A stretch of 58,867 nucleotides of DNA from a virus (Duplodnaviria > Caudoviricetes): positions 1-58,867 of IMG/VR virus record IMGVR_UViG_3300049203_000265, one strand, 5' to 3'. The translations under genes were made by a program, and so were the position numbers. A model generated the notes under the pieces. It had not been told where the DNA came from, did not search any database, and was given only the letters and a program-made list of their open reading frames with translations. The stretch's first letter is position 1. Every line of letters starts with the position of its first letter. Positions 31,377-53,909 of the stretch are shown here, in pieces.

Positions 31377-33221
31377 ATGCACGCACTGGACTTGGAGACG
31401 GCGCCCAACACCGGCGACCTGTCCAACGGTTGGGCCCTCGAGCCGTGGCGCGCCCGGCAGGGCAAGGCCCGCATCACGAGCGTCGCCGTGTACGGCGACA
31501 AGGTCCGCAAACAGATCCTCGAGCCGAAGCGCGAGCAGCTGATCGAGCTGCTCGAGGAGCTGGCCGGCGAGGAGGTGTACGCGCACTGGGCACTGTTCGA
31601 CATCGCGTGGCTGATCGCCTCGGTCGAGCCGAACCGGATGGCCCGCCTGCACGAGGCGGTCAAGCGTGTGAGGTGGCGCGACACGGCCCTCCTCGCCAAG
31701 TGGTGCATCAACGGCCGCAAGGCCGACGACATGTACTTCAGCTACGCACTGCTGAACCTCATCAACGTCTTCAAGGGCAAGATGGGATACGAGGGCGCGG
31801 ACGAATTCATCCGCATGAAGCAGGCCGAGGCGCTCGAACAGACCGACGAGTACTGGCAGAAGCGCGGCGAGCAGGACGTGCTGTGGACCTACCGCCTGGC
31901 CAAGTTCCTCGAGTCGCAGCTGCCGGCGCCGTGCCGCCGCGGCTTCGTCATCGAACAGAGGTCCCTACCCCAAATCGCCAACAGCTGGCTGATAGGCATG
32001 TATGTCGACCAGGATGCGTTCAAGAAAGCGGAGGCTCAGATCGAGAGCGACATCGCCGCGGGGTGCCGGGAGCTCGGACTTTCTGAGGCAGTTGTCGGAT
32101 CTCCAGCTCAGCTTGGCCGCGTTGTCTTTGGCGAGTGGGGATTTCAGCCTATCGCTACGACTCCTACGGGACAGCCTAAGGCCGACGCGGATACGTGGAT
32201 TGTTCTGGCGTACCAGTTTGGCGACCCGAGACTTAAGACTCTTCTCAAAACTCGGCAAGCACTTACCCTTCGATCCAAATACATCCGCACCGTTTACGAT
32301 GCTCTCGCTCACACCGGCGACGGGTACATGTACGGGAAGCCCCAGCTGTTCGGGACCACCTCCGGTCGGCTGACGATGACGAGCGAGACCGTCAAGGGCA
32401 TGAAGGTCTCCATGGCGATGCACCAGATACCGCGCAAGGACAAGATCATCCGCGCGTTCATGTCGCCCCCGCCGGGCTACAAGATCTTCGAGACCGACGC
32501 CGCGGCGCAGGAGTCGCGCATCATGGGCATCTGGTCTGGTGACGAGGAGATCACCCGCATCTTCAACGAGGGGATCAACTTCCACTCGAGCATGGCGTGC
32601 GAGATCTACCACATCCCGTACGAGACGTTCCAGGCCGAGCTGAAGAGGGAGAATCCGCAGTACATCGAGTTCCGGCAGATGGGCAAGCTGACCAACCTGT
32701 CGTGCAACTTCCGCATCGGCGGCAAGAAGCTGGCGATGAAGTCCCTGACGGAGTACGACAGCTACATGACCGAGATGGACGGCCGCAAACTGGTCCGGAC
32801 CTTCCAGCGCAAGTATCCGATGGTGCCGGCCTACTGGAACGCCATCATCGAGTTCGCTAAGCAGAACGGCTACAGCTACACGCTAGCCCAGCGCAGGTGG
32901 AAGGTGCCGACCGAGATGCTGAACTCCGGCGACGCGTGGAAAGTCGAAGGTACGGTCATCAGCCACCCGATCCAGGGCACCGGCGGCGAGATGTTTTTGG
33001 CAGCCCTTAGCCAGGTGCCGGAGGCGAGGATGCAGACCAGCCTACACGACGGCATCTTCTGGATGGTGGAGGACTCTCCGTACGGTCAGCAGGAGGCCGA
33101 CGAGATCCTGCACCGCATGAACAGCACCCCGTACGCCAAGCTGTGGGACATGGCCGAGCTGCCGATCCCGCTGCTGTACGAGGGCACGCGACTCGGGAGC
33201 TCGTATGCCGACGTCAAGTGA
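31377..33221 (+). CDS. polA: DNA polymerase family A with 3'-5' exonuclease
   Basis: ALDLET (ExoI), TTSGRL, motif A DAAAQESR, motif B RQMGKLTNLSCNFR, IQGTG, motif C LHDG. Confidence 0.92.
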   Translation: MHALDLETAPNTGDLSNGWALEPWRARQGKARITSVAVYGDKVRKQILEPKREQLIELLEELAGEEVYAHWALFDIAWLIASVEPNRMARLHEAVKRVRWRDTALLAKWCINGRKADDMYFSYALLNLINVFKGKMGYEGADEFIRMKQAEALEQTDEYWQKRGEQDVLWTYRLAKFLESQLPAPCRRGFVIEQRSLPQIANSWLIGMYVDQDAFKKAEAQIESDIAAGCRELGLSEAVVGSPAQLGRVVFGEWGFQPIATTPTGQPKADADTWIVLAYQFGDPRLKTLLKTRQALTLRSKYIRTVYDALAHTGDGYMYGKPQLFGTTSGRLTMTSETVKGMKVSMAMHQIPRKDKIIRAFMSPPPGYKIFETDAAAQESRIMGIWSGDEEITRIFNEGINFHSSMACEIYHIPYETFQAELKRENPQYIEFRQMGKLTNLSCNFRIGGKKLAMKSLTEYDSYMTEMDGRKLVRTFQRKYPMVPAYWNAIIEFAKQNGYSYTLAQRRWKVPTEMLNSGDAWKVEGTVISHPIQGTGGEMFLAALSQVPEARMQTSLHDGIFWMVEDSPYGQQEADEILHRMNSTPYAKLWDMAELPIPLLYEGTRLGSSYADVK

Positions 33222-37616: not shown

Positions 37617-39242
37617 GTGAAGAGTTTGCTGCTGACCCTCGGCCACAACAGCTCGGCCGTCCTGATGGACGACAACCGTGTGGCTTGGGGCTACGAGACC
37701 GAGCGGATTTCCGGGGCGAAGTCCGACAGCAATTTCCCGGCCCGAGTGCTCGAGCGCCGCCTGTGGTCGAGCGTGGACATGGTCTACGTCACTCACTGGG
37801 CGCCGACCGGCCAGCTGATCGACATGTCGCACAAACACTGGCGGCCGGAGTTCTTCGACGGCATACCCGTGCGGTCGCTCTCTCCGTCGTGCTCGCACCA
37901 CGACACCCACATCGCGGGCGCGATGTGTTACGCCGGCCCGCGCTTCCCCTACGGGCGGAAGACCATCGGCGTGGTGGTCGACGGGTTCGGCATCCTCGGC
38001 GAACACTTCAGCGTGTACCAGCTCGAGGCTCACCAGAAGCCGAGGCTCCTGCGCCGCGTGCACGGCTACGGCACCAGCCTCGGGCTGTGGTATCAGTACG
38101 CCACCGCCTTCATGGGTATGAAGATGCACGAGGACGAGTACAAGCTGCTCGGCTACGAGGCGCATATCCGGGAGGAGGACGCAGAAGACCTCGACCGCCT
38201 GTCCAAGAGCGCCTCGGAGAAGTGGCTCGAGTGGATGGGGCAATCCGTCTACGGGTCCGAGTTCGACCCAGTCTACAACCTCGCCGCGCTCGAGGAGGTC
38301 AAGAAGAAGGTGTTCGGCCAGCTTCTGGCCGTGTGCAAGTACTTCGGCCTCGCCGACCCGTCAGCCGACCTCTCGCGCCGCATCCTGTCGTACTACGTGC
38401 AGAGGGTGCTCGAGCGCGTGGTGGTCGGCCTGATCGACCTCAGCGCGGGCGACTACACCAACATGATCTGCTCGGGCGGTGTGTTCTACAACGTCAAGCT
38501 CAACAAGATCCTTCTCGACCAGGTGGCCGAGCGCGGCGGCCAGATGTGCGTGTACCCTCTGGCGGGCGACCAGGGCTGCGCTCTAGGCCTCTACGCCATC
38601 GACCACCCGGCACTGGAGTTTCCGAAGGACCTGAACTGGGGCGTGCGCGAGCTCTACGACGTCGGCGAGGTCAAGGGCCTCATCGTGTTCGAGAACGAGC
38701 TCGAGGCCGTCGACTACTCGATCCACCGCCTCCGTACCAAGGGCGTGGTGAACCTCGTGCGGGGCGCGATGGAATTCGGGCCTCGCGCCATGTGCAACAC
38801 GTCGACCATCGCCTTGCCCAACCGCAAGGTGGTGCGCAAGATCAACACGGCCAACGAGCGGAACACCGTCATGCCGATGGCTCCGGTCATGAGCGAGACG
38901 CAGTACACGTCGCTCCTCGAGAAGACCCCGCACGTGTGGCGCTCGCACCGCCACATGATAATGGCGATGGAGATGAAGGAGCACCCGTTGGACAACATGC
39001 TGGGCTGCACGCACGAGTACCATCGCCCGACGAAGCACCACACGTGCCGCCCGCAGGTGGTGGGCCCGAGCGACGGAGTCATGACCAAGATGCTGTCGGC
39101 CTTCGGGCACCCGCTCATCAACACCTCTTTCAACTATCACGGCATGCCCATCGCGTTCGACATGCCGTCGATCATACAAAACCACAACATGCAGCACCAG
39201 CGCGACAACGACTTTCACACAGTGGTGATCCAAAATGTCTAA
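37617..39242 (+). CDS. NodU/CmcH-family O-carbamoyltransferase
   Basis: GHNSSA, ER....K, HHDTH, VVDGFG, SGGVFYNVKLN, GDQG, EFGPRA, INTSFNYHGMPI. Confidence 0.92.
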   Translation: MKSLLLTLGHNSSAVLMDDNRVAWGYETERISGAKSDSNFPARVLERRLWSSVDMVYVTHWAPTGQLIDMSHKHWRPEFFDGIPVRSLSPSCSHHDTHIAGAMCYAGPRFPYGRKTIGVVVDGFGILGEHFSVYQLEAHQKPRLLRRVHGYGTSLGLWYQYATAFMGMKMHEDEYKLLGYEAHIREEDAEDLDRLSKSASEKWLEWMGQSVYGSEFDPVYNLAALEEVKKKVFGQLLAVCKYFGLADPSADLSRRILSYYVQRVLERVVVGLIDLSAGDYTNMICSGGVFYNVKLNKILLDQVAERGGQMCVYPLAGDQGCALGLYAIDHPALEFPKDLNWGVRELYDVGEVKGLIVFENELEAVDYSIHRLRTKGVVNLVRGAMEFGPRAMCNTSTIALPNRKVVRKINTANERNTVMPMAPVMSETQYTSLLEKTPHVWRSHRHMIMAMEMKEHPLDNMLGCTHEYHRPTKHHTCRPQVVGPSDGVMTKMLSAFGHPLINTSFNYHGMPIAFDMPSIIQNHNMQHQRDNDFHTVVIQNV

Positions 39243-39696
39243 CATCTCAGCAGAGATCGTCGAGCCAGTCCATTCGACGGACCCCGTCTTCGACGCGATC
39301 TACGACTTCAACGAGATGGTCGTCGGCGTGGCCGTCGACCTGAAGATCAACGGCCTGACCGACGACCAGCGCAAGTGGATGTCGAAGGCTCTCCGCGAGG
39401 AAGCGAAGGAGTTCGACGATGCCGAGGCCGTCATGAGTCATAGCTTCGAAGATTTCGTGGTGGCTCAGGTCGACGCGCTCCTCGACTCCATCTACTTCGC
39501 GGTGGGCGGGCTCAAAAAGATGGGTCTCACCCGTGCCCAGGCCTACGAGTGCATGATGGCAGTGCACCGTGCCAACATGAACAAGAAGCGCGGCGGCAAG
39601 GCCAGCCGTGGCAACTTCGCGGAGGACGCCGTCCGGACGGAGGAATTCGTGCCGCCCGAAGCCGCCATCAAGCGCATCATCTTCGGAGGCATCTGA
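39235..39696 (+). CDS. MazG-like nucleotide pyrophosphohydrolase (putative dCTPase)
   Basis: EEAKEF...VDALLDSIYFAVG...VHRANMNK. Confidence 0.8.
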   Translation: MSNISAEIVEPVHSTDPVFDAIYDFNEMVVGVAVDLKINGLTDDQRKWMSKALREEAKEFDDAEAVMSHSFEDFVVAQVDALLDSIYFAVGGLKKMGLTRAQAYECMMAVHRANMNKKRGGKASRGNFAEDAVRTEEFVPPEAAIKRIIFGGI

Positions 39697-40263
39697 ATGG
39701 CGATCGTACTCGAGGGGCCCGACAACGCCGGCAAGACGACGCTCGCTCAGGCCCTGCAATCCGCCATCCCGTGCCACTACGTGCACGCGGGTGGGCCGCC
39801 CGCGAGTTCCCAGGTCGAGCTCGATTGCCTCGCCAAGCAGCAGGCCCTCTTTCTCGAGCCGGACGCGGTGCTGGACCGCGTCACGTGCGTGAGTCAGTCG
39901 GTGTACAACCCGTCGGAGAGCATGGATCCCATCCGGCGCCACGCCCGCGCCCACATGGTGCACCAGGGCGTGCTGCTCGTGTTCTGCCGGCCGAGCACGG
40001 ACCGACTCATGCGGACCAACGACTTCACCTGGCGGGTGGACGAGCCCGACGAGCTGAAGCAGAAAATCGTGCACAACCAACAGACGTTCGTTATGCGGTA
40101 CGACCACGTCATGGCCGTCACGCCGCACGTGCACTACAACTTCGAAGAGCCGGGCATCGCCACACAGATCGCCGAGATGCTGGTGGACGTGCTGAAGGGG
40201 GACCTCGGAGCCTACAACGCACTGCACCGCATGATGCACATGCGAGGGGGAATCGTCGGATGA
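39697..40263 (+). CDS. dNMP kinase (thymidylate-kinase fold; putative hm-dCMP kinase)
   Basis: IVLEGPDNAGKTT P-loop; LDR...SQSVY. Confidence 0.8.
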   Translation: MAIVLEGPDNAGKTTLAQALQSAIPCHYVHAGGPPASSQVELDCLAKQQALFLEPDAVLDRVTCVSQSVYNPSESMDPIRRHARAHMVHQGVLLVFCRPSTDRLMRTNDFTWRVDEPDELKQKIVHNQQTFVMRYDHVMAVTPHVHYNFEEPGIATQIAEMLVDVLKGDLGAYNALHRMMHMRGGIVG

Positions 40264-41081
40264 AGGTCCTCAATTCCGGCCACAACGCCGTCTCGATGCT
40301 GGCCATGTACCGCATGGCCCTGTCCGGCGTCGAGATCCACGCCCGAGGCACGACGAGCCGCAACGTGCGCAACCTGTGCATCGTGCTGAACCCGCAGGAC
40401 TCGTGCCTCACCTCGTTCGACGCCCGCAAGCTGAACCTCGACTACTGCAAGAAAGAGTGGCTGTGGTATCTGCGGGCGGACAAGTACGACGACTCGATCG
40501 AGAAGCACGCCAGCATGTGGGCCAAGATCAAGCAGCCGGACGGGTCCTACTACAGCAACTACGGCCAGTACCTCTTCGCCCCCGGGCCGGTCGAGAGCGG
40601 CGCCTCGCAGTTCGAGTACTGCGTGCACACGCTGCGGAAGGACCCTGACTCGCGGCGGGCCTCCATTGTTCTGCTCCAGCGGAACCACCTCTTTCCCGAC
40701 AACGCCGACGTGGTGTGCACGTACGCCATCCACTTCTGCATCGAGCTCGGGCGCCTGCACATGACGGTCCACATGCGGAGCAACGACGTGGTGTTCGGCT
40801 TCACCAACGACTCGTTCTGCTTCTGGCAGCTGTACCGCTTCATGTTCGTACTGCTGAAGCTGAAGTACCCCGACCTCAAGTTCGGCACGTACACCCACAC
40901 GGCCAACTCCATGCACGTGTACGACCGGCACTACGAGATGCTGACCAAGATCGACTCGGCCGGCCTGGCTGGCCACACCGACGTCGACGTGCCGATGCCG
41001 ACGGCCAACGAGGTCGCCATCCTGATCAGGTCGAGGGGCGAGGACGGCGAAGGAGCGTACAGTGACTGGCTCAAGGCTTGA
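40260..41081 (+). CDS. thymidylate-synthase-family dCMP hydroxymethylase
   Basis: SNYG, DSRRA, catalytic DVVCT, MRSNDVVFGFTND (Asp at the TS Asn specificity site, as in T4 gp42), SMHVYDRH. Confidence 0.85.
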   Translation: MKVLNSGHNAVSMLAMYRMALSGVEIHARGTTSRNVRNLCIVLNPQDSCLTSFDARKLNLDYCKKEWLWYLRADKYDDSIEKHASMWAKIKQPDGSYYSNYGQYLFAPGPVESGASQFEYCVHTLRKDPDSRRASIVLLQRNHLFPDNADVVCTYAIHFCIELGRLHMTVHMRSNDVVFGFTNDSFCFWQLYRFMFVLLKLKYPDLKFGTYTHTANSMHVYDRHYEMLTKIDSAGLAGHTDVDVPMPTANEVAILIRSRGEDGEGAYSDWLKA

Positions 41082-41634
41082 CGTCGATGAGTATTTCCTC
41101 CTTATGGCGGAGCTTGTGGCACGACGCTCCACGTGCTCGCGCCGAAGCGTTGGCTGCGTACTCGTCAGCGCTAGCAACCACGTTCTCGCCACCGGATACA
41201 ACGGCGTTCACAAGGGCGCTGATCACTGCACTGAGGTACCGTGCGCAGGTGCATCGCTCCCGTCCGGCACGGGTCTCGACAAGTGCGAGGCTGTCCACGC
41301 GGAGCAGAACGCGATCATTCAGTGCCATGACACCGAGGCTATCCACACGGCTTACGTCACGGCTCGGCCCTGCGTGTTCTGCATGCGGATGCTCGCGAAC
41401 ACGAGTGTTCGACGAATCGTCTACCTAGAGGAGTACCCCCATGTCGAGACAGAACGGATCGCCCGAGTCCGAGAAATCGAGCTCGCCCACCGCCCTCGGA
41501 CCGGTGGCCCAGACGTTCCAGCACTGTGTGGACCAGTACGGGCTGATCGGGACGGCGCAGTGCAAATTGGTGTGGTACCACGCGAGTCTCCAGATGTACA
41601 ACCTGATGGTCGACGTGCTGCGGACGAACCCTGA
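41062..41634 (+). CDS. dCMP deaminase
   Basis: RSTC.RR.VG, TGYNG, HAEQNA, PCVFC zinc motifs. Confidence 0.9.
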   Translation: MTGSRLDVDEYFLLMAELVARRSTCSRRSVGCVLVSASNHVLATGYNGVHKGADHCTEVPCAGASLPSGTGLDKCEAVHAEQNAIIQCHDTEAIHTAYVTARPCVFCMRMLANTSVRRIVYLEEYPHVETERIARVREIELAHRPRTGGPDVPALCGPVRADRDGAVQIGVVPRESPDVQPDGRRAADEP

Positions 41635-41755: not shown

Positions 41756-42835
41756 ATGGACGAGATCCGACTATTCCGGAAGAACCAGCTGGGCATCGGG
41801 ACCTGGCGCATCTGGGCCGAGGACGTGCGGCCCGACCAGGCTCACCTCTGCTACGCGCACGCCGTCACCGAGGGCGGGACCGAGGTACCGCACCGTGACA
41901 CGATCGTCATGAACGGGTCGGGGCGGAACATCGAGGAGCAGCTCAGGCTCGAGCGGGACTCGCGCGTGCGCCGCATGATGGATAAGGGGTATAAGCCCAC
42001 CCGCGACGAAGCCCTGCTCGGCGCCACCAACCAGCTCGGGCTGCTGAACCCGATGCTGGCCCAGACCATCGAGAAGGTGGCGTCGTTCGAGTTCGAGGGC
42101 GTCTTCGTGCAGCCAAAGCTGGACGGTCACCGCTGCATGATCACCAACCAGGGCGGTAACATCTTCGCGTACACGCGCAAGGGCCGGCCCATCGAGACGA
42201 TCCCCCACGTGCTGAACCAGTTCGGCTGGCTGCTCGAGGGCAAGACCGTGGACGGCGAACTGTACATCCACGGCGAGAAGCTGCAGACCATCAGCAGCCT
42301 CATCAAGCGGGCCCAGCCGAGGAGCTCCGAACTGCGCTTTCACTGGTACGACTGGATCTCGCCGCGCCCGTTCATCGCGAGGTGGGCCGAGATGAAGCAG
42401 GCCTATGCCACGAAGAAACCGGAATTCGTGGACCTCGTGCCGACGGTCGAGGTGTACAGTATGGAGGACGTGTACAGCCACTTCAAGGTGCACCGCGCAT
42501 CGGGCTACGAGGGTACCATGGTGCGGAGGTCGGTCGCGGGCTACGAGGCCAATTACCGCTCGCCCCAACTGTTGAAGGTCAAGGAGCGGCACGACTGCGA
42601 GGTCACCGTACTCGGCGGCAGGCCGTCGCGCGAGGGCTGGGCCATCCTGCAGGTGCGGATGGACAGTGGTAAGACGTTCGACGTGAGCGCGCCGGGGTCG
42701 GTCATCGAGAAGACGAAGGTCCTCGCCGAGATTCCGAAGTACGTCGGGCGGCGCCTGACGATCGAGTACGCCCACCTGACCAACGACGGCATCCCGTTCC
42801 ACGCCGTCGCGCTCCGGTGGAGGGAGGATCTGTGA
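41756..42835 (+). CDS. lig: ATP-dependent DNA ligase
   Basis: QPKLDGHRC, DGELY, YEGTMVR, LLKVK, GIPFH. Confidence 0.92.
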   Translation: MDEIRLFRKNQLGIGTWRIWAEDVRPDQAHLCYAHAVTEGGTEVPHRDTIVMNGSGRNIEEQLRLERDSRVRRMMDKGYKPTRDEALLGATNQLGLLNPMLAQTIEKVASFEFEGVFVQPKLDGHRCMITNQGGNIFAYTRKGRPIETIPHVLNQFGWLLEGKTVDGELYIHGEKLQTISSLIKRAQPRSSELRFHWYDWISPRPFIARWAEMKQAYATKKPEFVDLVPTVEVYSMEDVYSHFKVHRASGYEGTMVRRSVAGYEANYRSPQLLKVKERHDCEVTVLGGRPSREGWAILQVRMDSGKTFDVSAPGSVIEKTKVLAEIPKYVGRRLTIEYAHLTNDGIPFHAVALRWREDL

Positions 42836-43108: not shown

Positions 43109-43339
43109 ATGACCTACGAATCCGACGAGATGGTCGGGCGCGCGTTCGGCCGCCTCACCGCGGTGGCTCGCGTCGGGAGCGACAAGTGGAAATCTGCCCT
43201 GTGGCTGTGCAGGTGCAGGTGCGGAAGAGAGACCACAGCCTCCGCGAGCAAGTTGGTTCGGGGCGAGCGGAAGTCGTGCGGGTGTCTAAAACTCGAATCA
43301 ATCGCGTACATCAACGCAGACCGAAGGGGGTCGACATGA
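43109..43339 (+). CDS. truncated homing-endonuclease-associated Cys domain
   Basis: G..FGRLT...WLCRCRCG...L..G..KSCGC with no nuclease domain following. Confidence 0.65.
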   Translation: MTYESDEMVGRAFGRLTAVARVGSDKWKSALWLCRCRCGRETTASASKLVRGERKSCGCLKLESIAYINADRRGST

Positions 43340-43755
43340 AAGCGTACGTACTGGGGTTCGCCTTCGACGACGTGGGCCGGGTGGTGCTCATGCGCAAGAA
43401 CCGTCCCGACTGGCAGAAGGGCCGTTGGAACGGCGTGGGTGGGCTCATCGAGGGCGGTGAGACACCGCAGGTGGCCATGGCCCGCGAGTTCAAGGAGGAG
43501 ACCGGCGTAGACGTGCACCCGGCCCACTGGACGAAGATCGGCAACATGGTCGGCACCGTGGGATGGTTCGTGCACGTGTATACCACGAAGGGCGTTGCCG
43601 TGCGGGACTGCCACACGTGCACCGACGAAGAGGTGAGCCACTTCGTGCCCTGGAAGCTCCCGGAAGGCATGATTCCGAACCTGCCGGCGATGATCAGCAT
43701 CGCGCAGATCGCCGAGGGCGACGAGCGGCCAGAGTTCGTGTTCAGTTACCGTTGA
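43336..43755 (+). CDS. Nudix hydrolase
   Basis: Nudix box GGLIEGGETPQVAMAREFKEETG. Confidence 0.9.
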   Translation: MKAYVLGFAFDDVGRVVLMRKNRPDWQKGRWNGVGGLIEGGETPQVAMAREFKEETGVDVHPAHWTKIGNMVGTVGWFVHVYTTKGVAVRDCHTCTDEEVSHFVPWKLPEGMIPNLPAMISIAQIAEGDERPEFVFSYR

Positions 43756-45784: not shown

Positions 45785-45789
45785 ACACG

Positions 45790-46537
45790 CAGGCAGCAAG
45801 AGTAGCCTCCCACTCTTTGTTCGGGGCCGGTCCGTACGGACACCATCCGGGCGCTAAACGAAGGCCGTTGACGAGACGTAAACTCGCCTAGACCTGGGCA
45901 TGTCGACAAAACTGCCCACTTATCTGTTTCGGCCGGAGAGGGGGAGGCGATGGCCCCCGTAAAGGTAAATCGAGGTGTTGCTGCGGCTTGCTGCATTTGT
46001 CGCACCGAACAGGCGCTCGGGCCGAAACAGATAAGTTGCAAGGCCAGTTAAGGTCGCGTTCGTTCCATGTCGCGGCAGTGACGCAGGCCCCAATCGGCGG
46101 CAGATCGTGATGAGAGTTGTCCCGGGCGCATCTCCAATGTGCCGCCAGCCCGGACGGACGTTTGTAGTTGGCTTCAGGCATCAAGTCTCGACAAAGCGGC
46201 AATTCGGCGGAATTAATGCCGTGAAAACGAGAGCCCCCGCCGGGGAAGCATAGGGCGATTTGAGGACGAGCCGGGTTTACTGGTCAACTCTTAAAGTTCC
46301 GAAGAGGGCGGCAGCCCCTGGCGCCTGAGGTTAACTACAAGGGTCCGGAGCGACGGCCGACCGCGGGATGTGAAGCCCTCGCGGAGAGCCGCCGGGCTCT
46401 TGACGAGTTCTGTGGGCCGCTCTAGCTCAGAAAGCTCAGCCGAATTCTAGACAAGGCCGAGTGCGGTAGAGCCCCGGGCTAATAACCCGGTACGTGCGGA
46501 GAGATGGGCCTCCTCCGGAGCGGCCCACAGAGCTTAT
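45790..46537 (+). ncRNA. large structured non-coding RNA (unassigned family)
   Basis: ~760 nt gap in a gene-dense region; three 17-18 bp helices, two with G-U pairs valid only on the + strand. Confidence 0.7.
46414..46527 (+). ncRNA. aberrant tRNA-like cloverleaf, anticodon AAU
   Basis: TAGCTCAG...GGTAGAGC D arm; CCGGG-CTAATAA-CCCGG anticodon arm; no TTC loop. Confidence 0.55.
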
Positions 46538-46549
46538 CGGAGGTCTGTC

Positions 46550-46981
46550 ATGATCAGTCGCAGAGGCCTGCTGGCCGGGTTCGCCGCGAGCGCGGCTGGC
46601 GTTCTGGTGCCGCAAGCGCCGGCCATCGTGCGCAGCACATCGCTCATGCCGGTGCGGCCGCTCGAGGACTTTCTCGTGTACTCCGTCAGCTACCGACATG
46701 TTGGAGTGTTCGGAGACACGTTCGTCGCCCGGGCCTGGTGGCATGCGGCCACCAAACGGTGGTACCAGCCCGTCGCCGAACACGAGTACGACCGTGACAG
46801 ACCCAGCGGGATGTGGATGCGCCGGAACGGCACGTACTTCGCCAGTGACGTCGACGGCTCCGGCGATGGCTGGGAACAGCGCCGCGTCGAAGTGCCGGTG
46901 CTTCGCACCATGGAGCTCTGTGAAGTGAAATTCGGGTCCAGAGGATCCATCGAGATGGTGACAAAGGAGATAGATTTGTGA
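46550..46981 (+). CDS. hypothetical protein with twin-arginine-like N-terminus
   Basis: MISRRGLLAGFAA; GGAGG RBS. Confidence 0.6.
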   Translation: MISRRGLLAGFAASAAGVLVPQAPAIVRSTSLMPVRPLEDFLVYSVSYRHVGVFGDTFVARAWWHAATKRWYQPVAEHEYDRDRPSGMWMRRNGTYFASDVDGSGDGWEQRRVEVPVLRTMELCEVKFGSRGSIEMVTKEIDL

Positions 46982-47505
46982 GAGATCTGATGCTGGACCT
47001 GGAGACGATGGGCGTCCGCCCGACGTCGGCCATCGTGTCGATCGGGGCCGTCATGTTCGACGAGAACGGCCTCGGCTCGGAGTTTTACACCCCGGTCAGT
47101 CTGCAGTCGTGCGTGCGCTTCGGGCTCACCACCGACGCGGACACCGTGAAGTGGTGGGAGACGCAGCCGGAGCTCGTGCGCAACGCGTGGGCGGACGAGC
47201 ACGCTCCCCTCATGGACGTCGCGCTCAAGGCCTTCAACGACTGGTGCGTCAAGAACGGCGTGCAGCGGGTCTGGGGCAACGGCGCCGACTTCGACCCGCC
47301 GATCATCGTCAACGCCTTTCGCGCTCTCGACGCCGAGGCGCCGTGGCCGTGGCACGGGCACCGCTGCTACCGCACGGTGAGGAACATGTTCGACGACCCG
47401 CAGACGCCGCGGACAGGCACGCTCCACCACGCCCTGGACGATGCCAAGTACCAGGCACAGAACCTGCTGGCCATCATGTCGATGAACCGGCTGCACCTCG
47501 GCTAA
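46978..47505 (+). CDS. DEDDh 3'-5' exonuclease/exoribonuclease
   Basis: MLDLETMG, WGNGADFD, H.ALDDAKYQA. Confidence 0.88.
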   Translation: MRDLMLDLETMGVRPTSAIVSIGAVMFDENGLGSEFYTPVSLQSCVRFGLTTDADTVKWWETQPELVRNAWADEHAPLMDVALKAFNDWCVKNGVQRVWGNGADFDPPIIVNAFRALDAEAPWPWHGHRCYRTVRNMFDDPQTPRTGTLHHALDDAKYQAQNLLAIMSMNRLHLG

Positions 47506-47514
47506 GGAGTCCGT

Positions 47515-47736
47515 ATGGCAAAGTTCGCGATGTACCTGGTGAACCTCGGAGAGGGCACTGTCCACGGCTGCAACGACACGGAGCGCATCGGAGCCGTCAT
47601 CGAGGCGGACGAGGACTACGATTCCGACAACTTCCTGATCATCCACGCCACCAACGGCCAGGTACAGCAGTGGCACCTGCCCGCCAACGAGATCGCCGAA
47701 TTGCCGGACCCCGACGAGGCCGCCGACTCCGAATAG
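47515..47736 (+). CDS. small acidic protein
   Basis: AAGGAG RBS; Asp/Glu-rich. Confidence 0.65.
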   Translation: MAKFAMYLVNLGEGTVHGCNDTERIGAVIEADEDYDSDNFLIIHATNGQVQQWHLPANEIAELPDPDEAADSE

Positions 47737-47766
47737 CCCGCCGAGAACGAGGACGATGATTGATTT

Positions 47767-47807
47767 GATCGAAACGGTGTACAGGGAGCACCGGGACGGC
47801 GTACAAT
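47767..47807 (+). promoter_or_regulatory. promoter GATCGAA-N4-TGTACA-N18-TACAAT
   Basis: Repeated motif. Confidence 0.75.
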
Positions 47808-47814
47808 AGTCGAC

Positions 47815-48021
47815 ATGCACATACAGCTAAAGCACGCGGTCAACGTGCGCAGCTCCACGGGGCGGCTCCACATCGTCCTGCGGGGCAAGCAGGTCAACTA
47901 CTCCCGCAAGCGGCTGGACGAGCACCACGTCGAGCACAGATTCAGCGTGGCGCTCCCGAACGGGCAGTTCCTCGAGCACAAGCAGGTGAGCGTGAAGGGC
48001 GCGGTGCCGTCGTGGCTGTGA
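47815..48021 (+). CDS. small basic hypothetical protein
   Basis: Directly after a promoter. Confidence 0.6.
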   Translation: MHIQLKHAVNVRSSTGRLHIVLRGKQVNYSRKRLDEHHVEHRFSVALPNGQFLEHKQVSVKGAVPSWL

Positions 48022-48359
48022 TCCGGAGCGACTATCTGCGGAACGCGATGGCCGCGCCGGCCGCCAACCACCTGGCTGTGTTCGGCCTCCAGTCGATACT
48101 CCGGTTCCACTGGCGGCGGATGGAGGATGACCTCGCTGCACTGGAGCACGCGGGGCACAGGTTCACTGTCCGACCGATGGCCCGCCTGGTGTTCGCCGAG
48201 GGTGGGATGCTGTGGTTCGCCGTGGCGAGCCACGTGAGGGACATCTACAAGTTCCAGGGCATCGAACTTGCCGATTTCTGGATAGACGTGTCCGTGCCTT
48301 ACCCTGTGCACGGTCCGCTAAAGTCGGTTCTACAGGGTCGAATCCGTCATCAGATATGA
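48018..48359 (+). CDS. hypothetical protein
   Basis: GTGA overlap. Confidence 0.5.
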   Translation: MIRSDYLRNAMAAPAANHLAVFGLQSILRFHWRRMEDDLAALEHAGHRFTVRPMARLVFAEGGMLWFAVASHVRDIYKFQGIELADFWIDVSVPYPVHGPLKSVLQGRIRHQI

Positions 48360-48955
48360 GCGAGGAAACCATGAGCAATCCGTTCGCGGCGTACGTGGGA
48401 AATTACTGGCCGAGGCGCCTGGAGTCGGACTACGACCACGACCGCCGTCAGCGGCAGAAGCTGTTCAACCACGTGGTCACGCGCGGAGGGGCCGACCGCC
48501 TCGACCCCGCGCTCTTCGTCCACCGCTACGGCAGCAGCCCCGCGCTCTACCCGAAGCCCAACGGCGGCAAGCGCACGCTCCCGTCCGTGTACGTGCAATT
48601 GCGGGCCGGTACGTGGCTCAACGCCGTCGGCGAGTACCTCGACGTGGTGGGGATGAACCCTGGCCACATCGAAAACTGCTGCAAGCTCCTGAACGAGTCG
48701 CACGGCAACGTGGTGGCCAAGTGCACCGAGCTGCTCGGCCGGATGGCCAACCACTTCGCGAACCAACCCGACATCGTCGAGCGATTGGAGGCCGTCTGCC
48801 GCCGGATGCAGGAGGTGGACGTGTCGGAGATGTACCCGATCATGGAGGACCTCCGCGCCGAGCTGCACGACCGGCCGGCGTCGCCGAGGACGACGGTGGA
48901 CCCGGAGAACCTCCGGGACACGCTCGATCTCTGGAACGACGACGAACCGTACTAA
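48356..48955 (+). CDS. hypothetical protein
   Basis: ATGA overlap (alternative start 48371); codon usage. Confidence 0.65.
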   Translation: MSEETMSNPFAAYVGNYWPRRLESDYDHDRRQRQKLFNHVVTRGGADRLDPALFVHRYGSSPALYPKPNGGKRTLPSVYVQLRAGTWLNAVGEYLDVVGMNPGHIENCCKLLNESHGNVVAKCTELLGRMANHFANQPDIVERLEAVCRRMQEVDVSEMYPIMEDLRAELHDRPASPRTTVDPENLRDTLDLWNDDEPY

Positions 48956-48970
48956 AGTAGCACACTGGAG

Positions 48971-49053
48971 GCGCTCTCCGGGACGATACGGGGTATATCC
49001 GGGACTCCCGGACGCCGTTCTAGTAGTTATACATAGGAGCCGGCTCCCGGACG
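48971..49053 (+). repeat. dispersed ~82 bp TCCNGGA element, copy 2
   Basis: Aligns with 28719-28800. Confidence 0.85.
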
Positions 49054-49059
49054 ACGAAC

Positions 49060-49296
49060 ATGTACAAGGTGTTTTGTGACATTTGTGGAACAGAGATTAC
49101 CGGCTACAGCCGCATGACCCGTTCTGGCAACGGTCGGTTGATGGTCGAGAGGCAGGCGGCGCACGGGTCCGGCCACAACTACTTCCGGTTCGAGGTGATG
49201 GTCGGTACGGACGGAGTCGCCAACCAGGGCGACTTCTGCAAATACTGCATCATCGATTCGATCAACTGCGCCGACGACCGTGCTAGGGCAGCATGA
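49060..49296 (+). CDS. zinc-ribbon protein
   Basis: CDIC...DFCKYC. Confidence 0.65.
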   Translation: MYKVFCDICGTEITGYSRMTRSGNGRLMVERQAAHGSGHNYFRFEVMVGTDGVANQGDFCKYCIIDSINCADDRARAA

Positions 49297-49613
49297 GCAA
49301 GCTCGTGAACCTCTTCGAACCATTCACGCCGGTGCAGGAGATTTCGACCGGCACGGTGTTCCTCGGAGCGGCCAACCGCCCGTGGCAAGAGCCGCCGAAC
49401 TTCGACCCGCAGAGCCAGCCCGACCCTGTGGCCGGCGACCTGTGCTGGTACTTCCTGAAGGACAGCGACTCTCCGTGGCCGCGCCTCGCGCACCGCCCGG
49501 TGAGGGTGTACGACGTCAGGCCGGATTGGGTACTGGAGGCGTACGAGGGCAACACCCCGGACGCAACGAAGATGGCCACGTTCAAGCGGCTCTACCGGAG
49601 GGTTACGTCATGA
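49293..49613 (+). CDS. hypothetical protein
   Basis: ATGA overlaps at both ends. Confidence 0.6.
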   Translation: MSKLVNLFEPFTPVQEISTGTVFLGAANRPWQEPPNFDPQSQPDPVAGDLCWYFLKDSDSPWPRLAHRPVRVYDVRPDWVLEAYEGNTPDATKMATFKRLYRRVTS

Positions 49614-50023
49614 GCCCGTACCAGCTCTGTCAGGAGCTCGCCGTTCAGCACGAGCCCAAACTGTGGCGACTGATCACGGCCTGCGCACTGCTCAACAAGA
49701 CGAGCGGCAATCAGGTCCGCCCGATGATCGAGCGGTTCTGGGAGCTGTGCGGCGAGCCGGCGAAGTGCATCCACAACGTGCGCACCGCGGAGGTAGCGAC
49801 CCTGCTACAGCCTCTTGGCCTGTACACGCGACGGGCATCGCTCCTCGCGCGGATGGCGGACGACTACCTGTCCGGAATACCACTCGAGCGCACCGCCGGC
49901 GTGGGCAAGTACGCCCTCGACTCGGTGAAGGTCTTTATCGAGGGTCACTCCGACGTGGTCACCGACGACCCGTGGATCAGCAAGTATTTGGAGTGGCGCA
50001 GGTCGCCGGAGTGCACGGAGTGA
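49610..50023 (+). CDS. MBD4-like HhH-GPD DNA glycosylase
   Basis: W.LI.AC.LLNKTSG, LLQPLGLYTRRA, GVGKYALDS..F, TDD..ISKYLEW match the MBD4 glycosylase domain. Confidence 0.8.
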   Translation: MSPYQLCQELAVQHEPKLWRLITACALLNKTSGNQVRPMIERFWELCGEPAKCIHNVRTAEVATLLQPLGLYTRRASLLARMADDYLSGIPLERTAGVGKYALDSVKVFIEGHSDVVTDDPWISKYLEWRRSPECTE

Positions 50024-50241
50024 ACACATTCTTCGTCAAGATCAAGGGCCGCAAGGAGTACGTCCGTGACGACGAGGTCCGCCACGACTGGGAAGCCGGC
50101 GTGGAGTTCAAGTCGCACCTCACCGACGAGCCGGTCACAGTGAAGGACGAGCTGCGCATGCGCATGGCCGGCTTCACGGAGCTGTGGATCGTGTGGTGGG
50201 ACGGCGAGCGGGTCCGCCACGTCAAGAAGGAACTGAAATGA
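50020..50241 (+). CDS. hypothetical protein
   Basis: GTGA overlap; codon usage. Confidence 0.6.
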   Translation: MNTFFVKIKGRKEYVRDDEVRHDWEAGVEFKSHLTDEPVTVKDELRMRMAGFTELWIVWWDGERVRHVKKELK

Positions 50242-50459
50242 GCGATCCCGCGATCGACTGGGAACCTCTCCAGAAGTATAAGAAGGACACGGTCGAGTGT
50301 CACTGCGGCACCGTCTACATGTCCCACAGCAAGGGCGTGATCCACGAAAAACAGTTCGCGGTCTACACGCAAGAGCCCTGCCCCAAGTGCGGCAGTTACA
50401 TCAACCCACGACGGGTCTCCAGCCTCGTAGAGCCATGGGACATTCCAGCAAAGAGATGA
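50238..50459 (+). CDS. zinc-ribbon protein
   Basis: CHCG...CPKCG. Confidence 0.65.
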   Translation: MSDPAIDWEPLQKYKKDTVECHCGTVYMSHSKGVIHEKQFAVYTQEPCPKCGSYINPRRVSSLVEPWDIPAKR

Positions 50460-50659
50460 GCACCTACGGCGACGACTTCGTGTCGTCCATGAAGCACGCG
50501 GCCAACGAGCGCCACGCCCGAGCCATCTACGGCCGCCTCATGATGAGGATCTGGTCAGTGGCCCACATCGGGTGGCCCAAACTCCTGTCGTCGTGGAACG
50601 ACGACGTCGAGCGGGTCGAGCGCGTGGCGAAGGAGCGGGGATTCGACCTGTCCAGGTGA
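50456..50659 (+). CDS. hypothetical protein
   Basis: ATGA overlap. Confidence 0.55.
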   Translation: MSTYGDDFVSSMKHAANERHARAIYGRLMMRIWSVAHIGWPKLLSSWNDDVERVERVAKERGFDLSR

Positions 50660-50841
50660 CCGATGCCGCATCCCGATCCGAAGTGTGCGGGGTGCGGCCG
50701 GCGCCCCAGCACGTGCACCTGTCTCGGCGGGCCGTCGTACAGCATATCCGGCTACGTGTGGACCTGCCGGAGTGACCCTCGCATCAGGGCCTGGGTCGCG
50801 ACCGATCCCCCGGGCCTCCGACAGCGGGTTAGATTATCCGC

Positions 50842-50882
50842 GATCAAACTGTTGTACAAGGAGAGCATGGGCGGCGTAAGAT
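50842..50882 (+). promoter_or_regulatory. promoter GATCAAA-N4-TGTACA-N18-TAAGAT
   Basis: Repeated motif. Confidence 0.7.
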
Positions 50883-50920
50883 ACTACTATCGCGATAACA
50901 CTTGATCGGAGGTAACCGCG

Positions 50921-51217
50921 ATGAAAGTAGCCAACCGGACCGTCGTGATCCCACCCCAACTGGACGGCGACGGAAGGGCCGCCGTGCCCGTCACCCTCGA
51001 ACGGGAGTGCGTGCTCTACGGCACGCGCCCCGTGCCCAACCTGCGGTACGGGCACGTGAGAAACTGCATCGAGCGCTTCGTCGAGACGCGCCGCTCAGTC
51101 CACAGTCAACTCGGCGGCATGCTGTGGATCGTGCTGTGGTTCTGCCAGCTCAACAAGCTGCGCTACACCATGATGGCGGACCCGAACCACGGGTACGTCG
51201 TGGAGCTGCTGCCGTGA
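50921..51217 (+). CDS. hypothetical protein
   Basis: GGAGGT RBS after a promoter. Confidence 0.7.
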   Translation: MKVANRTVVIPPQLDGDGRAAVPVTLERECVLYGTRPVPNLRYGHVRNCIERFVETRRSVHSQLGGMLWIVLWFCQLNKLRYTMMADPNHGYVVELLP

Positions 51218-51495
51218 GGGCCCGCCGCAAGTCGGCTCCCGTCACGGCGGAGCGCCCCTTCGAGACCGACTACGCCGGAGCCTGGCACGGCCGGTGCAAG
51301 TCGCGCGAGTCCGCCGTGAACGCGGCATCCAAGCACATCCAGAGCGACGGCTACGCGAAGTGCACGGTCACCGACCTGCGCACGAACTACATCGTCGCCG
51401 AGGTGTTCCGCGAAGGTCAGTACGGGTTCCGCGTCAAGTTGTACGGGACGCCGCTCATGCCAGTCCGCCGCCCGAACCTGCGGAGAGTCAAGTGA
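51214..51495 (+). CDS. hypothetical protein
   Basis: GTGA overlap. Confidence 0.6.
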   Translation: MRARRKSAPVTAERPFETDYAGAWHGRCKSRESAVNAASKHIQSDGYAKCTVTDLRTNYIVAEVFREGQYGFRVKLYGTPLMPVRRPNLRRVK

Positions 51496-51659
51496 GAGCC
51501 GCTCTCATCGTCGCCCTCCTCCTGGCCGCCTGCGGCGGAGGAGATCCCTGCGCCGACGGGTACGAGTGGGCCGAGTCGCTCGGGCAGTGCGTGCGCTGCC
51601 CGCCCGGGTTTCACTGGAACGATCGCGCTGGCAAGTGCCAGGGAGGTGCGGTGTCATGA
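51492..51659 (+). CDS. small Cys-rich lipoprotein
   Basis: MRAALIVALLLAA-C lipobox; two C..G..W.....C units. Confidence 0.65.
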   Translation: MRAALIVALLLAACGGGDPCADGYEWAESLGQCVRCPPGFHWNDRAGKCQGGAVS

Positions 51660-51919
51660 GCTTCTTCTGGGTCCAATTCTCCGGACCGTCCGACGTCGCG
51701 TCCAGAATCCACGACGGCTGCACCGTCCGGGCCAAGGACAAGGACGAAGCCGTGGTGGTCGCCACGCAGGAGACCGGCAAAGTCGTCGTGAGGGCCGACT
51801 TTCTGCCGTACCCGGCGCACCCCTACATCAGGAGCGACGGCCACCCGACGTTCTGCCACGACCCGGAGCGGTGCCGCGGCCGGACCAGTTGCCCGAAGTC
51901 GTACGCCTGCTCGGAGTAG
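51656..51919 (+). CDS. hypothetical protein, Cys-rich C-terminus
   Basis: GGAGG RBS; LPYPA...FC..P..C.GR.SCP..C. Confidence 0.65.
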   Translation: MSFFWVQFSGPSDVASRIHDGCTVRAKDKDEAVVVATQETGKVVVRADFLPYPAHPYIRSDGHPTFCHDPERCRGRTSCPKSYACSE

Positions 51920-51923
51920 CGAA

Positions 51924-52529
51924 GTGAAAGTCATCGAGGCCATCCAGAACATCGCCGCCGTCAAGGGCGTGCGCTACGCCCGCAACTGTGCGGTCGTGGC
52001 GAGCGCCCTCGACCTCATCCTCCAGATGGAGACGGCCCTCAGACAGGGGCAGAAGCTCGAGCCGGACACGCCCGCCGAGACGAACCTCATCCTGTCCCGT
52101 AACATGACGACGGTCAACCTTCTGAAGGCGCTCGGCGTCGACCTCGCCGACGTGAACACGATCATACAGATCGCCGAGGCTGACGGCTCGGAGGTCAACC
52201 GGGCCATGTCGGAGGACGGCCTCGTCGGCCTCGGCCGCGTGCTGACCAAGTGGTCGCGCGAGATGAACCGCCCTGAGACCGAGGTCCAGCCCGACCTCAT
52301 GGGGTTCAGCGCCGAGGGCCGGGTCATGCGCCTCGTCCGCCGCGGAGTGCTCCTCAAGATGCACGACGTGGTCAGCACGGCGGACGGTACTCGAGAGGTG
52401 GTGGGCGGTTCCCCCGGGACAGACTCCGTCCTGCTGTACCGACCGGGCGGCGTGACCACCGAGCATCGCACATCGCACATCGAGGCCCAGTGGCTCGAGG
52501 TGCAACCCGACAACAACCCGTCTTTCTGA
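51924..52529 (+). CDS. hypothetical protein
   Basis: GGAG RBS; codon usage. Confidence 0.65.
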   Translation: MKVIEAIQNIAAVKGVRYARNCAVVASALDLILQMETALRQGQKLEPDTPAETNLILSRNMTTVNLLKALGVDLADVNTIIQIAEADGSEVNRAMSEDGLVGLGRVLTKWSREMNRPETEVQPDLMGFSAEGRVMRLVRRGVLLKMHDVVSTADGTREVVGGSPGTDSVLLYRPGGVTTEHRTSHIEAQWLEVQPDNNPSF

Positions 52530-52542
52530 CAAGGAGCTTCAC

Positions 52543-53169
52543 ATGGGAACCGACATTCACGCAGTATTTCAGGCCCGCACGCCGACCGGGTGGAAGGACG
52601 TGCCCTCCAAGTACCGAGAGGAGCGGCACTACCAGCTCTTCGCGGTGTTGGCCGACGTGCGCAACGGCCGCGGCTTCGCCGGCATCCCGACGGGCGAGGT
52701 TGTGACCCCGATCGCCGAGCCGAGGGGGCTCCCCGACGACTTCGAGATGTCGGCCGACTGCCACCCCGTGGCGACGCTCGAGTTGCTCGGCCGCCGAGCC
52801 GAGTGGCACGAGCCGAACGAGCCTCTCGAGGTATGGATGGGCGACCACTCGTACAGCTGGCTCACGGCCGACGAGATTCTCGCATGGTCACCGCCCCGGG
52901 TGCTGAAGACAGGTATCATCGACCGCAAGGACTACGAGACGTGGGACCACAAGACGCCGCCGTCCAGTTACTGCGGTGGGATCAGCGGACCCAACGTCGT
53001 CGTAGTCAGGGACAACAAGCGAGAGCTCGAGACCAATCCGAAGTGGACGCACGTCCGCGTCGAGTGGGAGGCTGACCTCAGGGAAGAGCTTTCGTACTTC
53101 ATCGAAGAGATAGCGAGGCTGCGGGCCGAGCACGGCGACGTGCGGATGGTCTTCGGGTTCGACAGCTGA
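52543..53169 (+). CDS. conserved phage hypothetical protein
   Basis: MGTDIH...LFAVLADVRNG...PRGLP...DHSYSWLT..E...VRMVFGFDS. Confidence 0.75.
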   Translation: MGTDIHAVFQARTPTGWKDVPSKYREERHYQLFAVLADVRNGRGFAGIPTGEVVTPIAEPRGLPDDFEMSADCHPVATLELLGRRAEWHEPNEPLEVWMGDHSYSWLTADEILAWSPPRVLKTGIIDRKDYETWDHKTPPSSYCGGISGPNVVVVRDNKRELETNPKWTHVRVEWEADLREELSYFIEEIARLRAEHGDVRMVFGFDS

Positions 53170-53422
53170 CGTGGCCGACGACTGGTACAAGCCCGTGGCG
53201 TGCGTGGCAGCCGGAGTTGCCGCCGGCGCGCTCGCGTGGCTGCTCGGGGCGGACGCCGTTACGTCCGTCGTGCTGGGAACGGTCGTCTTCGCGGGCTTTG
53301 CAATATTTTCCTCCTAAAAGGAGTAACAAAGTTACACCTCGTCACGGATCCTATTCGGAATCAGGTGGCAGGGGTGGCCAGGGGGCAGTACAATATCGTT
53401 ACGATCAACTCGGAGTTAGCAC

Positions 53423-53860: not shown

Positions 53861-53869
53861 ATAGTCCTC

Positions 53870-53909
53870 GATCAAATGTGTGTACATCCGCGTCCGGGAG
53901 CAGTACAAT
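53870..53909 (+). promoter_or_regulatory. promoter GATCAAA-N4-TGTACA-N17-TACAAT
   Basis: Repeated motif. Confidence 0.75.

Follow-up and report, generated by a model that had tools for sequence, protein, structure and literature searches.

Repair of the T:G mismatches that arise from deaminated 5-methylcytosine (5mC), encoded by the same genetic element that writes the 5mC, is known from Vsr, which works with Dcm. Vsr is a sequence-context-specific endonuclease of unrelated fold and chemistry, is cellular and not phage-wide, and offers a functional analogy to the protein described here. In phages whose cytosine is replaced by 5mC, 5-hydroxymethylcytosine (5hmC) or larger derivatives, the deaminated bases resemble thymine and the protection given by uracil glycosylase is therefore lost; the stability upkeep of such genomes is not addressed in the literature that we searched. 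We analysed the entire virus record IMGVR_UViG_3300049203_000265 (58,867 bases, hereafter the window), in which the open reading frame (ORF) at 49610-50023 encodes P0001, a predicted stand-alone DNA glycosylase of the MBD4 type. On balance, P0001 is probably a monofunctional G:T, G:U and G:5-substituted-U glycosylase that mends deaminated modified cytosines.

The closest described enzyme is the glycosylase domain of mammalian MBD4/MED1 (PDB 1ngn, 3iho, 4evv, 4ew0, 4e9e-h, 4dk9 and 6vjw), which has the same fold as P0001 along the whole length. Both proteins have the catalytic Asp, a Gln and a Tyr for reading a flipped T, U or 5-hydroxymethyluracil (5hmU), the LN(K/R)T finger segment and the PLGL wedge loop; both lack an Fe-S cluster, and both have Tyr replacing the catalytic Lys. 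Unlike MBD4, P0001 is phage-encoded and only 137 amino acids (aa) long, with no methyl-CpG-binding domain or linker, a Lys as the finger and a Trp in place of the lid lysine.

Xp12 DNA is >99% 5mC. Two papers describe Xp12 as carrying 5mC in full replacement of cytosine (PMC7653180; bioRxiv 10.1101/2024.12.05.627091), and Xp12-like phages encode stand-alone proteins of the same family as P0001 (34% identity, pairwise E = 5e-19). GenBank labels these homologues 'hypothetical protein' (Xp12, QNN97216.1), 'ENDO3c domain-containing protein' (AXL_1) or 'endonuclease III' (Donnerlittchen). The window also resembles the 5hmC carbamoyltransferase system described with MetaGPA (eLife 2021, PMC8670742), with which it shares a domain set and a DNA ligase gene, the repair gene being the window's addition to what is described there.

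We found no published description of a phage MBD4-type glycosylase in the literature searched. The terms glycosylase, HhH and MBD4 have no occurrence in the main text of PMC8670742, whose supplements may list HhH-GPD, and the Xp12 genome paper (PMC7653180) mentions only mammalian TDG. One text match to 'MBD4' in a phage paper was merely an accession number. An earlier note, made from this DNA sequence alone, had held that a system both writing and repairing a hypermodified base would be new; our literature searches found nothing in print to contradict this, though Xp12-like phages already contain homologues that lack annotation. P0001 would be a known kind of enzyme in an unreported biological setting, with a plausible but unproven function.

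A predicted MBD4-type glycosylase

The identification of P0001 as a stand-alone MBD4-type glycosylase, made in the earlier note, was borne out by sequence and structure comparisons. When we searched P0001 against all PDB chains with phmmer, 15 distinct sequences matched at E ≤ 1 and all 15 were MBD4 glycosylase domains; the best match (E = 1e-15) aligned residues 2-130. The note had also proposed comparison of an AlphaFold model with MBD4. An AlphaFold2 model of P0001, built on 41 homologues, was all-helical and had a pLDDT of 96.5 and a pTM of 0.90, and a Foldseek search of the PDB with this model placed MBD4 chains at ranks 1-16 (E ≤ 0.001), with TM-scores (TMq) of 0.76-0.82, a root-mean-square deviation (rmsd) of 2.0-2.8 Å and ~31% identity. 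For the MBD4 domain structures cited above, the corresponding values were a TMq of ~0.8 and an rmsd of 2.0-2.4 Å, again at ~31% identity. Among ESM Atlas clusters, the nearest to P0001 were viral HhH-GPD and 'MBD4' clusters, followed by eukaryotic MBD4; of the members with a known taxon in the nearest clusters (126, 89 and 58 members), 96-100% were viral. P0001 matched no family in PHROGs or NCBIfam.

MIG, a thermostable thymine-DNA glycosylase, removes T and U opposite G. Together with MutY and Endonuclease III (EndoIII), MIG (PDB 1kea) came next after MBD4 in the Foldseek ranking; these enzymes belong to the HhH-GPD superfamily, like P0001, but reached a TMq of only 0.52-0.64. They carry a C-terminal 4Fe-4S loop, whereas the five cysteines of P0001 (positions 7, 25, 47, 53 and 135) form no Fe-S cluster motif and its chain stops 17 residues past D120, so that P0001 lacks the cluster loop.

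We next compared P0001 with the active site of mouse MBD4, as described in the structural study of that enzyme (PMC3458566). The motifs quoted in the earlier note are all present in the translation: LNKTSG at 28-33, LLQPLGL at 65-71, GVGKYALDS at 97-105 and DDPWISKYLEW at 119-129. The mouse catalytic residue Asp534, whose mutation in D534N abolishes activity, corresponds to D120 of P0001, and Tyr514, which hydrogen-bonds O2 of the base and whose mutant Y514F is nearly dead, corresponds to Y101. Gln423, which reads O2 and N3 and thereby rejects cytosine, is Q8; Asn441, which makes a minor-groove contact, is N29; and Leu480 and Leu482, which contact the orphan guanine and form the wedge, are L69 and L71 in a wedge loop conserved as L69-G70-L71. 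Gly445, beside the C5 methyl group, is G33. The two departures are the finger, Arg442 in the mouse and K30 in P0001, and Lys536, which stacks on the base and contacts the 5hmU hydroxyl in the mouse enzyme and is W122 in P0001. The finger position is R, K, Q or L among relatives. Since the orphan guanine is read in MBD4 by main-chain carbonyls of the finger and the PLGL loop (PMC3458566), a Lys may suffice as the finger by analogy.

Across the 41 stand-alone homologues over which we scored conservation, Q8, W19, G70, G99 and D120 were invariant and N29, Y101 and D104 were at least 90% conserved; the residues expected of the HhH-GPD fold, G97, G99 and D120, are conserved. P0001 is predicted to be monofunctional because Tyr occupies the position of the catalytic Lys of bifunctional enzymes, and it is predicted to be catalytically active. 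No methyl-CpG-binding domain was found in P0001, in which HhH-GPD is the sole Pfam domain and whose start is fixed by the ribosome-binding site and the upstream overlap described below. The N-terminal extensions of ten longer homologues likewise contained no extra Pfam domain. Judged by sequence, P0001 is best regarded as a member of the MBD4 catalytic-domain family and not as an orthologue of full-length MBD4.

The ORF also looks like a real gene by its coding signals. It is stop-free over 137 codons, and the G+C content at third codon positions (GC3) is 0.86 in the P0001 frame and 0.47 in the overlapping +1 frame. A ribosome-binding site, GGAGGG, lies 8 nt 5' of the ATG. At its start the gene shares the sequence ATGA with the TGA stop of the upstream ORF, an overlap suggestive of translational coupling; at its end, a GTGA combines the GTG start of the downstream ORF with the P0001 stop.

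A putative cytosine-modification cassette in the window

The window encodes tail tube, tape-measure and terminase proteins and appears to come from a tailed, siphovirus-like phage. No DNA nearly identical to it was found in cultured phages. The earlier note's view of it as a modified-cytosine phage is well founded by homology. Its cassette (Table 1) comprises genes for a carbamoyltransferase, a MazG-like protein, a kinase-like protein, a TS (thymidylate synthase) homologue and a deaminase-family protein, and it matches the domain set, Carbam_trans_N/_C, Asp177 Thymidylat_synt, PRA-PH and dCMP_cyt_deam_1/MafB19, that MetaGPA reports on cytosine-modified contigs and links to 5-carbamoyloxymethylcytosine (5cmdC; PMC8670742). 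The same study describes Asp177 as a marker of dCMP specificity in TS homologues, and the TS homologue of the window has Asp at the position of E. coli ThyA Asn177 (motif GFTND). Its best PDB matches were the CMP hydroxymethylase MilA (4e-20) and T4 dCMP hydroxymethylase (2e-18), above any true thymidylate synthase. These matches and the carbamoyltransferase partner point to a hydroxymethylase and not a methylase, and the phage is predicted to use the 5cmdC pathway. The ATG of the TS homologue, at 40260, overlaps the stop of the kinase-like gene. The deaminases of the window and of Xp12 share 35% identity across 117 aligned residues. Three further IMG/VR contigs (L103-L105) have the same five cassette genes in the same order.

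Company with Asp177-type TS homologues

To assemble the company kept by the glycosylase, we used 86 loci (the best 80 from IMG/VR, 2 from an earlier scan, the window and three GenBank loci), which form 28 clusters, or lineages, at 70% identity. TS genes were sought with a TS-family hidden Markov model in the fetched flanks and then with PF00303 over whole records. In the flanks, within 10 kb, 8 of the 28 clusters had a TS gene, with Asp177 in seven and Asn in one. The whole-record search added Asp177-type genes in G001 (271 kb, 100% complete), G006 (369 kb, 100%), G009 (87%), G011 (12%) and the cyanophage S-TIM54, where the gene lies ~29 kb from the glycosylase. An Asp177-type homologue was thus present in 12/28 clusters and an Asn-type TS alone in 1/28; no TS gene was found in 15/28. 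All lineages that were at least 87% complete or represented by complete genomes (G001, G006, G009, the Xp12 group and S-TIM54) were of the Asp177 type. Co-occurrence with cytosine-modification genes, put forward in the earlier note as a test, was therefore positive wherever genomes were complete enough to judge.

Among the cultured relatives, gene context was examined in three, Xp12, Donnerlittchen and S-TIM54. In Xp12 and Donnerlittchen the glycosylase lies one gene 5' of the TS homologue, Asp177 in both, in a run of hydrolase, TS homologue, dCMP deaminase and dihydrofolate reductase genes. The glycosylase gene of these phages is in or directly beside the dCMP-methylase operon, whereas that of the window is 8.5 kb from its cassette. 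In published work, deaminase-TS pairs were reported on 104/149 modified contigs versus 17/277 unmodified ones, and 85.1% of the TS genes in the modified-contig pairs were predicted to be cytosine-specific (bioRxiv 10.1101/2024.12.05.627091).

The glycosylase is not tied to carbamoylation in particular, because none of three large glycosylase-bearing phage records contains a carbamoyltransferase (PF16861; 0/3); it goes with cytosine replacement generally and is optional for modified-cytosine phages. The suggestion of the earlier note that P0001 belongs to a dedicated repair arm fared less well in this respect, given the distance of the gene from the cassette and its absence from the three other cassette contigs, which are 35-51% complete.

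In the complete jumbo phage G001 (L086-L089), the glycosylase is accompanied by a canonical ThyA (Asn177) and by a divergent Asp177-type TS ~150 kb from ThyA. Cyanophage S-TIM54 (OP053362.1) encodes an MBD4-type glycosylase (L002:4277-4663) and an Asp177-type TS with the motif GVPLD (L091, ~145421-146233), both annotated as hypothetical or generic, and by sequence it is a candidate cytosine-modified cyanophage.

Proposed mechanism and alternative functions

In the mechanism that we propose, P0001 would bend duplex DNA, with L71 wedged into the helix and K30 filling the gap, and a 2,4-dioxo-pyrimidine opposite guanine would be flipped into an open pocket, where Q8 and Y101 would read O2 and N3 of the base and D120 would cleave the glycosidic bond. 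The natural substrates would be the deaminated forms of the phage's C5-modified cytosines, namely 5hmU and probably 5-carbamoyloxymethyl-U, and also T and U; the 5-substituted uracils would escape the host uracil glycosylase. The lesions could come from spontaneous deamination or from collateral activity of the deaminase-family enzyme that the phage itself encodes. Self-inflicted deamination is possible because relatives of the phage deaminase deaminate 5mC and 5hmC in single-stranded DNA: phage deaminases encoded beside Asp-type TS genes are described as making dTTP from 5mdCTP and as acting on those two bases in such DNA as well (bioRxiv 10.1101/2024.12.05.627091). The glycosylase may mend self-inflicted as well as spontaneous deamination.

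Downstream, a host apurinic/apyrimidinic (AP) endonuclease would cut the abasic site, because none was found in the phage, and gap filling and sealing would then fall to phage PolA and the ATP-dependent ligase, or to host enzymes. The earlier note had assigned such work to the phage ligase and PolA; both genes exist, and their use in repair is conjectural. Our analysis shows the family and fold, the conservation of catalytic and recognition residues, the genomic context and the co-occurrence, whereas we infer the activity, substrate range, lesion source and downstream steps.

A number of findings weigh against this function. In the protein itself, the Pfam HhH-GPD (PF00730) score of P0001 (E = 5.3e-6, 27.2 bits) exceeds the 26.2-bit cut-off by 1 bit only, the Arg finger of MBD4 has become Lys (Gln or Leu in many homologues), and the MBD4 lid lysine, mouse K536, has become Trp. 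In the window, the gene lies those 8.5 kb away from the cassette, amid small unknown genes, and the ORFs scanned yielded no AP endonuclease, Nei or lyase. Beyond it, the association with Asp177 is one of raw counts over few lineages, without a phage-wide background rate or P value. The 15 lineages in whose searched sequence no TS gene was found comprise eight whole records that are 14-68% complete, five contigs of 9-17 kb that lie nearly all within the flanks, and two for which flanks alone were searched. In record G013, which is 20% complete (L081-L085 and L102), a canonical ThyA with Asn177 lies ~2-3 kb from the glycosylase, and no homologue of the Asp type was found. The glycosylase was found in 0/3 of the other carbamoyltransferase-cassette contigs, incomplete as they are, and three tblastn searches of INPHARED returned no T4-like or Pseudomonas phages.

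Some of these observations would be expected if P0001 were a general-purpose G:U and G:T mismatch glycosylase, serving ordinary deamination or replication errors in a GC-rich genome with no link to modification. Its active site is of the generic MBD4 type, which also removes U and T, its gene is outside the modification cassette, more than half of the lineages (15/28) have no TS homologue found and one has canonical ThyA only, and the genes nearby are often general repair genes (Fpg/Nei and UvdE). We nevertheless consider this explanation unlikely. Every complete or near-complete glycosylase-bearing genome has an Asp177-type TS homologue; the gene sits in the dCMP-methylase operon of Xp12-like phages; the cultured phages that have it, in a collection of 50,697 records, are almost all of one 5mC lineage; and G:U is already dealt with by the uracil-DNA glycosylase (UDG) of the host.

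We give somewhat less credence to a SMUG1-like sanitiser of pool errors, which would remove 5hmU or 5-carbamoyloxymethyl-U derived from deaminated modified dCTP whatever the opposite base. Such errors are conceivable, as related phage deaminases are reported to turn 5hmdCTP into 5hmdUTP in vitro, with 5hmdU in DNA in vivo, and in the window the deaminase gene directly follows the hydroxymethylase gene; the lid and finger residues are also unlike those of MBD4. However, the finger and PLGL main chain with which MBD4 reads the orphan guanine (PMC3458566) has its counterpart in the loop kept as L69-G70-L71, and excision of a T stand-in opposite every A would shred the genome.

It is improbable that P0001 is a weapon or a counter-defence, excising bases of the host or of a competitor phage or undoing damage by host DNA-deaminase defences. 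Glycosylases do serve in phage-host conflict, for example host Brig3, which is described as excising 5hmC (PMC13160076), and an attack on host DNA had been raised in the earlier note as an alternative. But Q8 and the pattern of backbone amides select T and U and reject cytosines (PMC3458566), and the conservation of these residues disfavours that alternative; an MBD4-type enzyme does not take normal base pairs of the host as substrates; and the Pfam neighbour scan of representative loci found no defence-type neighbours, PADLOC not having been run. Brig3 is assigned to the UDG superfamily and not to HhH-GPD (PMC13160076), and we rejected Brig-type defence glycosylases as relatives of P0001. That P0001 is a remnant which has lost catalysis or only binds DNA is very improbable, as the 41 homologues show little or no variation at the catalytic Asp, the Gln, the Tyr and the HhH glycines, the model is very confident and the GC3 is typical of coding sequence, against which stand only the weak points of a marginal Pfam score and altered finger and lid residues.

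A Nei-type AP lyase would be a logical partner for a monofunctional glycosylase such as P0001 is predicted to be. If P0001 mends deaminated modified cytosines as we favour, a modification-linked phage glycosylase for G:T and G:5-substituted-U would be the missing maintenance step of cytosine-replaced genomes, an idea that is directly testable in the cultured phage Xp12, and the gene would be a marker predicting cytosine-modified phage DNA in metagenomes.

Clade-wise variation of the C5-facing pocket

We compared the active-site residues across 24 loci. N29, L69, Y101 and D120 were unchanged in 24/24, and Q8 and D104 were each kept in 22/24. By contrast, positions 33 (mouse Gly445) and 122 (mouse Lys536), which face the C5 substituent, differ between clades. 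The window enzyme and all six metagenomic relatives have G33 and W122, the Xp12 and Donnerlittchen homologues have W33 and K122, and other clades have Y/E, R/V, I/E and other pairs; a comparison of 153 sequences gave the same clade-wise pattern. The expected lesion also differs, being plain thymine in Xp12-like phages and 5hmU or carbamoyloxymethyl-U in the window phage, and the variable pair fits a tuning of the pocket to different deaminated bases.

A broader and more tentative proposal, which we regard as possible but doubtful, sees phage MBD4-type glycosylases as supplying the repair in a write-and-repair pair for wholesale cytosine replacement, with the 33/122 pocket tuned by clade. Were it true, P0001 would provide the first example of glycosylase specialisation towards a deaminated hypermodified base and would also buffer self-editing by the phage's own 5mC/5hmC-active deaminase. 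New with the window are the G33/W122 clade, the pairing of the glycosylase with a carbamoyltransferase pathway and its proposed connection to a deaminase side-activity. The family could also be a source of small mismatch glycosylases with varied C5 pockets for 5mC/5hmC sequencing chemistry.

Extent of the family

To find relatives among cultured phages, we ran tblastn with three different family members as queries against 50,697 records (INPHARED). The three queries matched 14, 17 and 16 records, representing 11 distinct viruses: eight Xp12-like phages (Xanthomonas, Stenotrophomonas and Janthinobacterium phages), S-TIM54, an Aeropyrum virus and one fecal phage. The matches to the last two were weaker, with E-values down to 5e-11 and 4e-4, and clear relatives in these records were confined to the Xp12 (5mC) group and S-TIM54. 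In IMG/VR, 281 of 301 pattern matches encode relatives.

An exhaustive search of 1.84 billion cluster representatives gave 1049 proteins at E ≤ 0.001, of which 220 reached E ≤ 1e-10. A set of 154 proteins, made up of P0001, three word-indexed relatives and the best 150 of the exhaustive search, contained 72 of at most 210 aa and 82 longer ones; the long members include jellyfish and plant proteins, and a short one, in the same clade, is from a fungus. Two scans of 185,579 prokaryote species genomes, each with a single peptide pattern, found no relative, which argues only weakly for absence from cellular prokaryotes. So far as these searches show, the family seems restricted to eukaryotes and tailed phages; a common origin by transfer, in either direction, would therefore link the phage enzymes with the catalytic domain of eukaryotic MBD4. 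In a midpoint-rooted FastTree of 153 domain sequences, built with no outgroup, a eukaryote-like clade of 79 sequences (SH-like support 0.94) joins one viral clade (support 0.93), apart from the remaining viral clades; the tree does not give the direction of transfer. The family is a possible clue to the provenance of the eukaryotic MBD4 catalytic domain.

Gene neighbourhood and other features of the window

For 28 representative loci, drawn from 25 IMG/VR clusters and 3 metagenome groups and including L050, L068, L010 and L060, we scanned 274 ORFs lying no more than 3.5 kb from the glycosylase, with family counts covering the top 25 families of each batch. Fapy_DNA_glyco and H2TH domains (Fpg/Nei) were found in 7/28 loci and UvdE in at least 2/28; after Fpg/Nei, the commonest neighbouring Pfam families were ribonucleotide reductase (6 loci), ThyX (5), dUTPase_2 (4) and TS (3). 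The neighbourhood thus appears to be one of repair and nucleotide metabolism, and it suggests that MBD4-type and Fpg/Nei genes are a portable base-excision-repair pair of phages.

Eight metagenome loci carry relatives of the window glycosylase, at 32-40% identity. Two of these contigs, L094 and L101 (57.8 and 57.5 kb), keep the window's gene order of exonuclease, 48353 gene and glycosylase, and L101 starts with a deaminase and a ligase ordered as in the window. In L094, a homologue of the 50020-50241 ORF lies immediately 5' of the glycosylase. Between the window and L094 the terminase is 75% identical and the glycosylase (L094:10001-10429) 36%, so that the glycosylase either evolves much faster than the structural core or was exchanged. 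It would be a stable but fast-evolving component of the window's phage group.

Table 1. Coordinates of the glycosylase gene, the modification cassette and related features of the window.
Feature	Coordinates	Strand	Evidence
MBD4-type HhH-GPD DNA glycosylase, stand-alone (P0001), predicted	49610..50023	+	Pfam, phmmer vs PDB, AlphaFold2, Foldseek
ORF upstream of the P0001 gene, 106 aa, without family match	49293..49613	+	
ORF downstream of the P0001 gene, 73 aa, without family match	50020..50241	+	
Carbamoyltransferase, N- and C-terminal domains; predicted 5hmC carbamoyltransferase (writer)	37617..39242	+	Pfam Carbam_trans_N, _C
MazG/PRA-PH-like nucleotide pyrophosphohydrolase	39235..39696	+	
P-loop kinase-like protein, weak dTMP-kinase and CPT matches; putative kinase for modified dCMP	39697..40263	+	
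Thymidylate-synthase-family enzyme, motif GFTND; predicted dCMP hydroxymethylase	40260..41081	+	
dCMP/dCTP-deaminase-family protein (dCMP_cyt_deam_1/MafB19)	41062..41634	+	
ATP-dependent DNA ligase; possible sealer of the repair nick	41756..42835	+	
NUDIX hydrolase	43186..43755	+	
Family A DNA polymerase; possible filler of the repair gap	31377..33221	+	

The window has a GC content of 64%, and every credible gene is on the + strand. It also encodes Prim-Pol primase, PD-(D/E)XK, VRR-NUC and SNF2 proteins. The part from 43800 to 58867 is a long series of small + strand ORFs, among them the two that overlap the glycosylase gene (49293-49613 and 50020-50241). Of the ORFs scanned there, almost none matches a Pfam family, apart from an Rv2179c-like exonuclease, the glycosylase and a beta-helix protein. 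The first of these, at 46978-47505, matches Rv2179c-like 3'-5' exoribonucleases (E = 1e-46), and such an exonuclease also lies a few kb 5' of the glycosylase in L094, L097, L100 and L101. The beta-helix protein, at 55173-56486, has 437 aa with right-handed beta-helix and alpha-1,3-glucanase-like domains; by these domains it is likely to be a tail-spike or depolymerase, and it may be a clue to the surface polysaccharide of the host.

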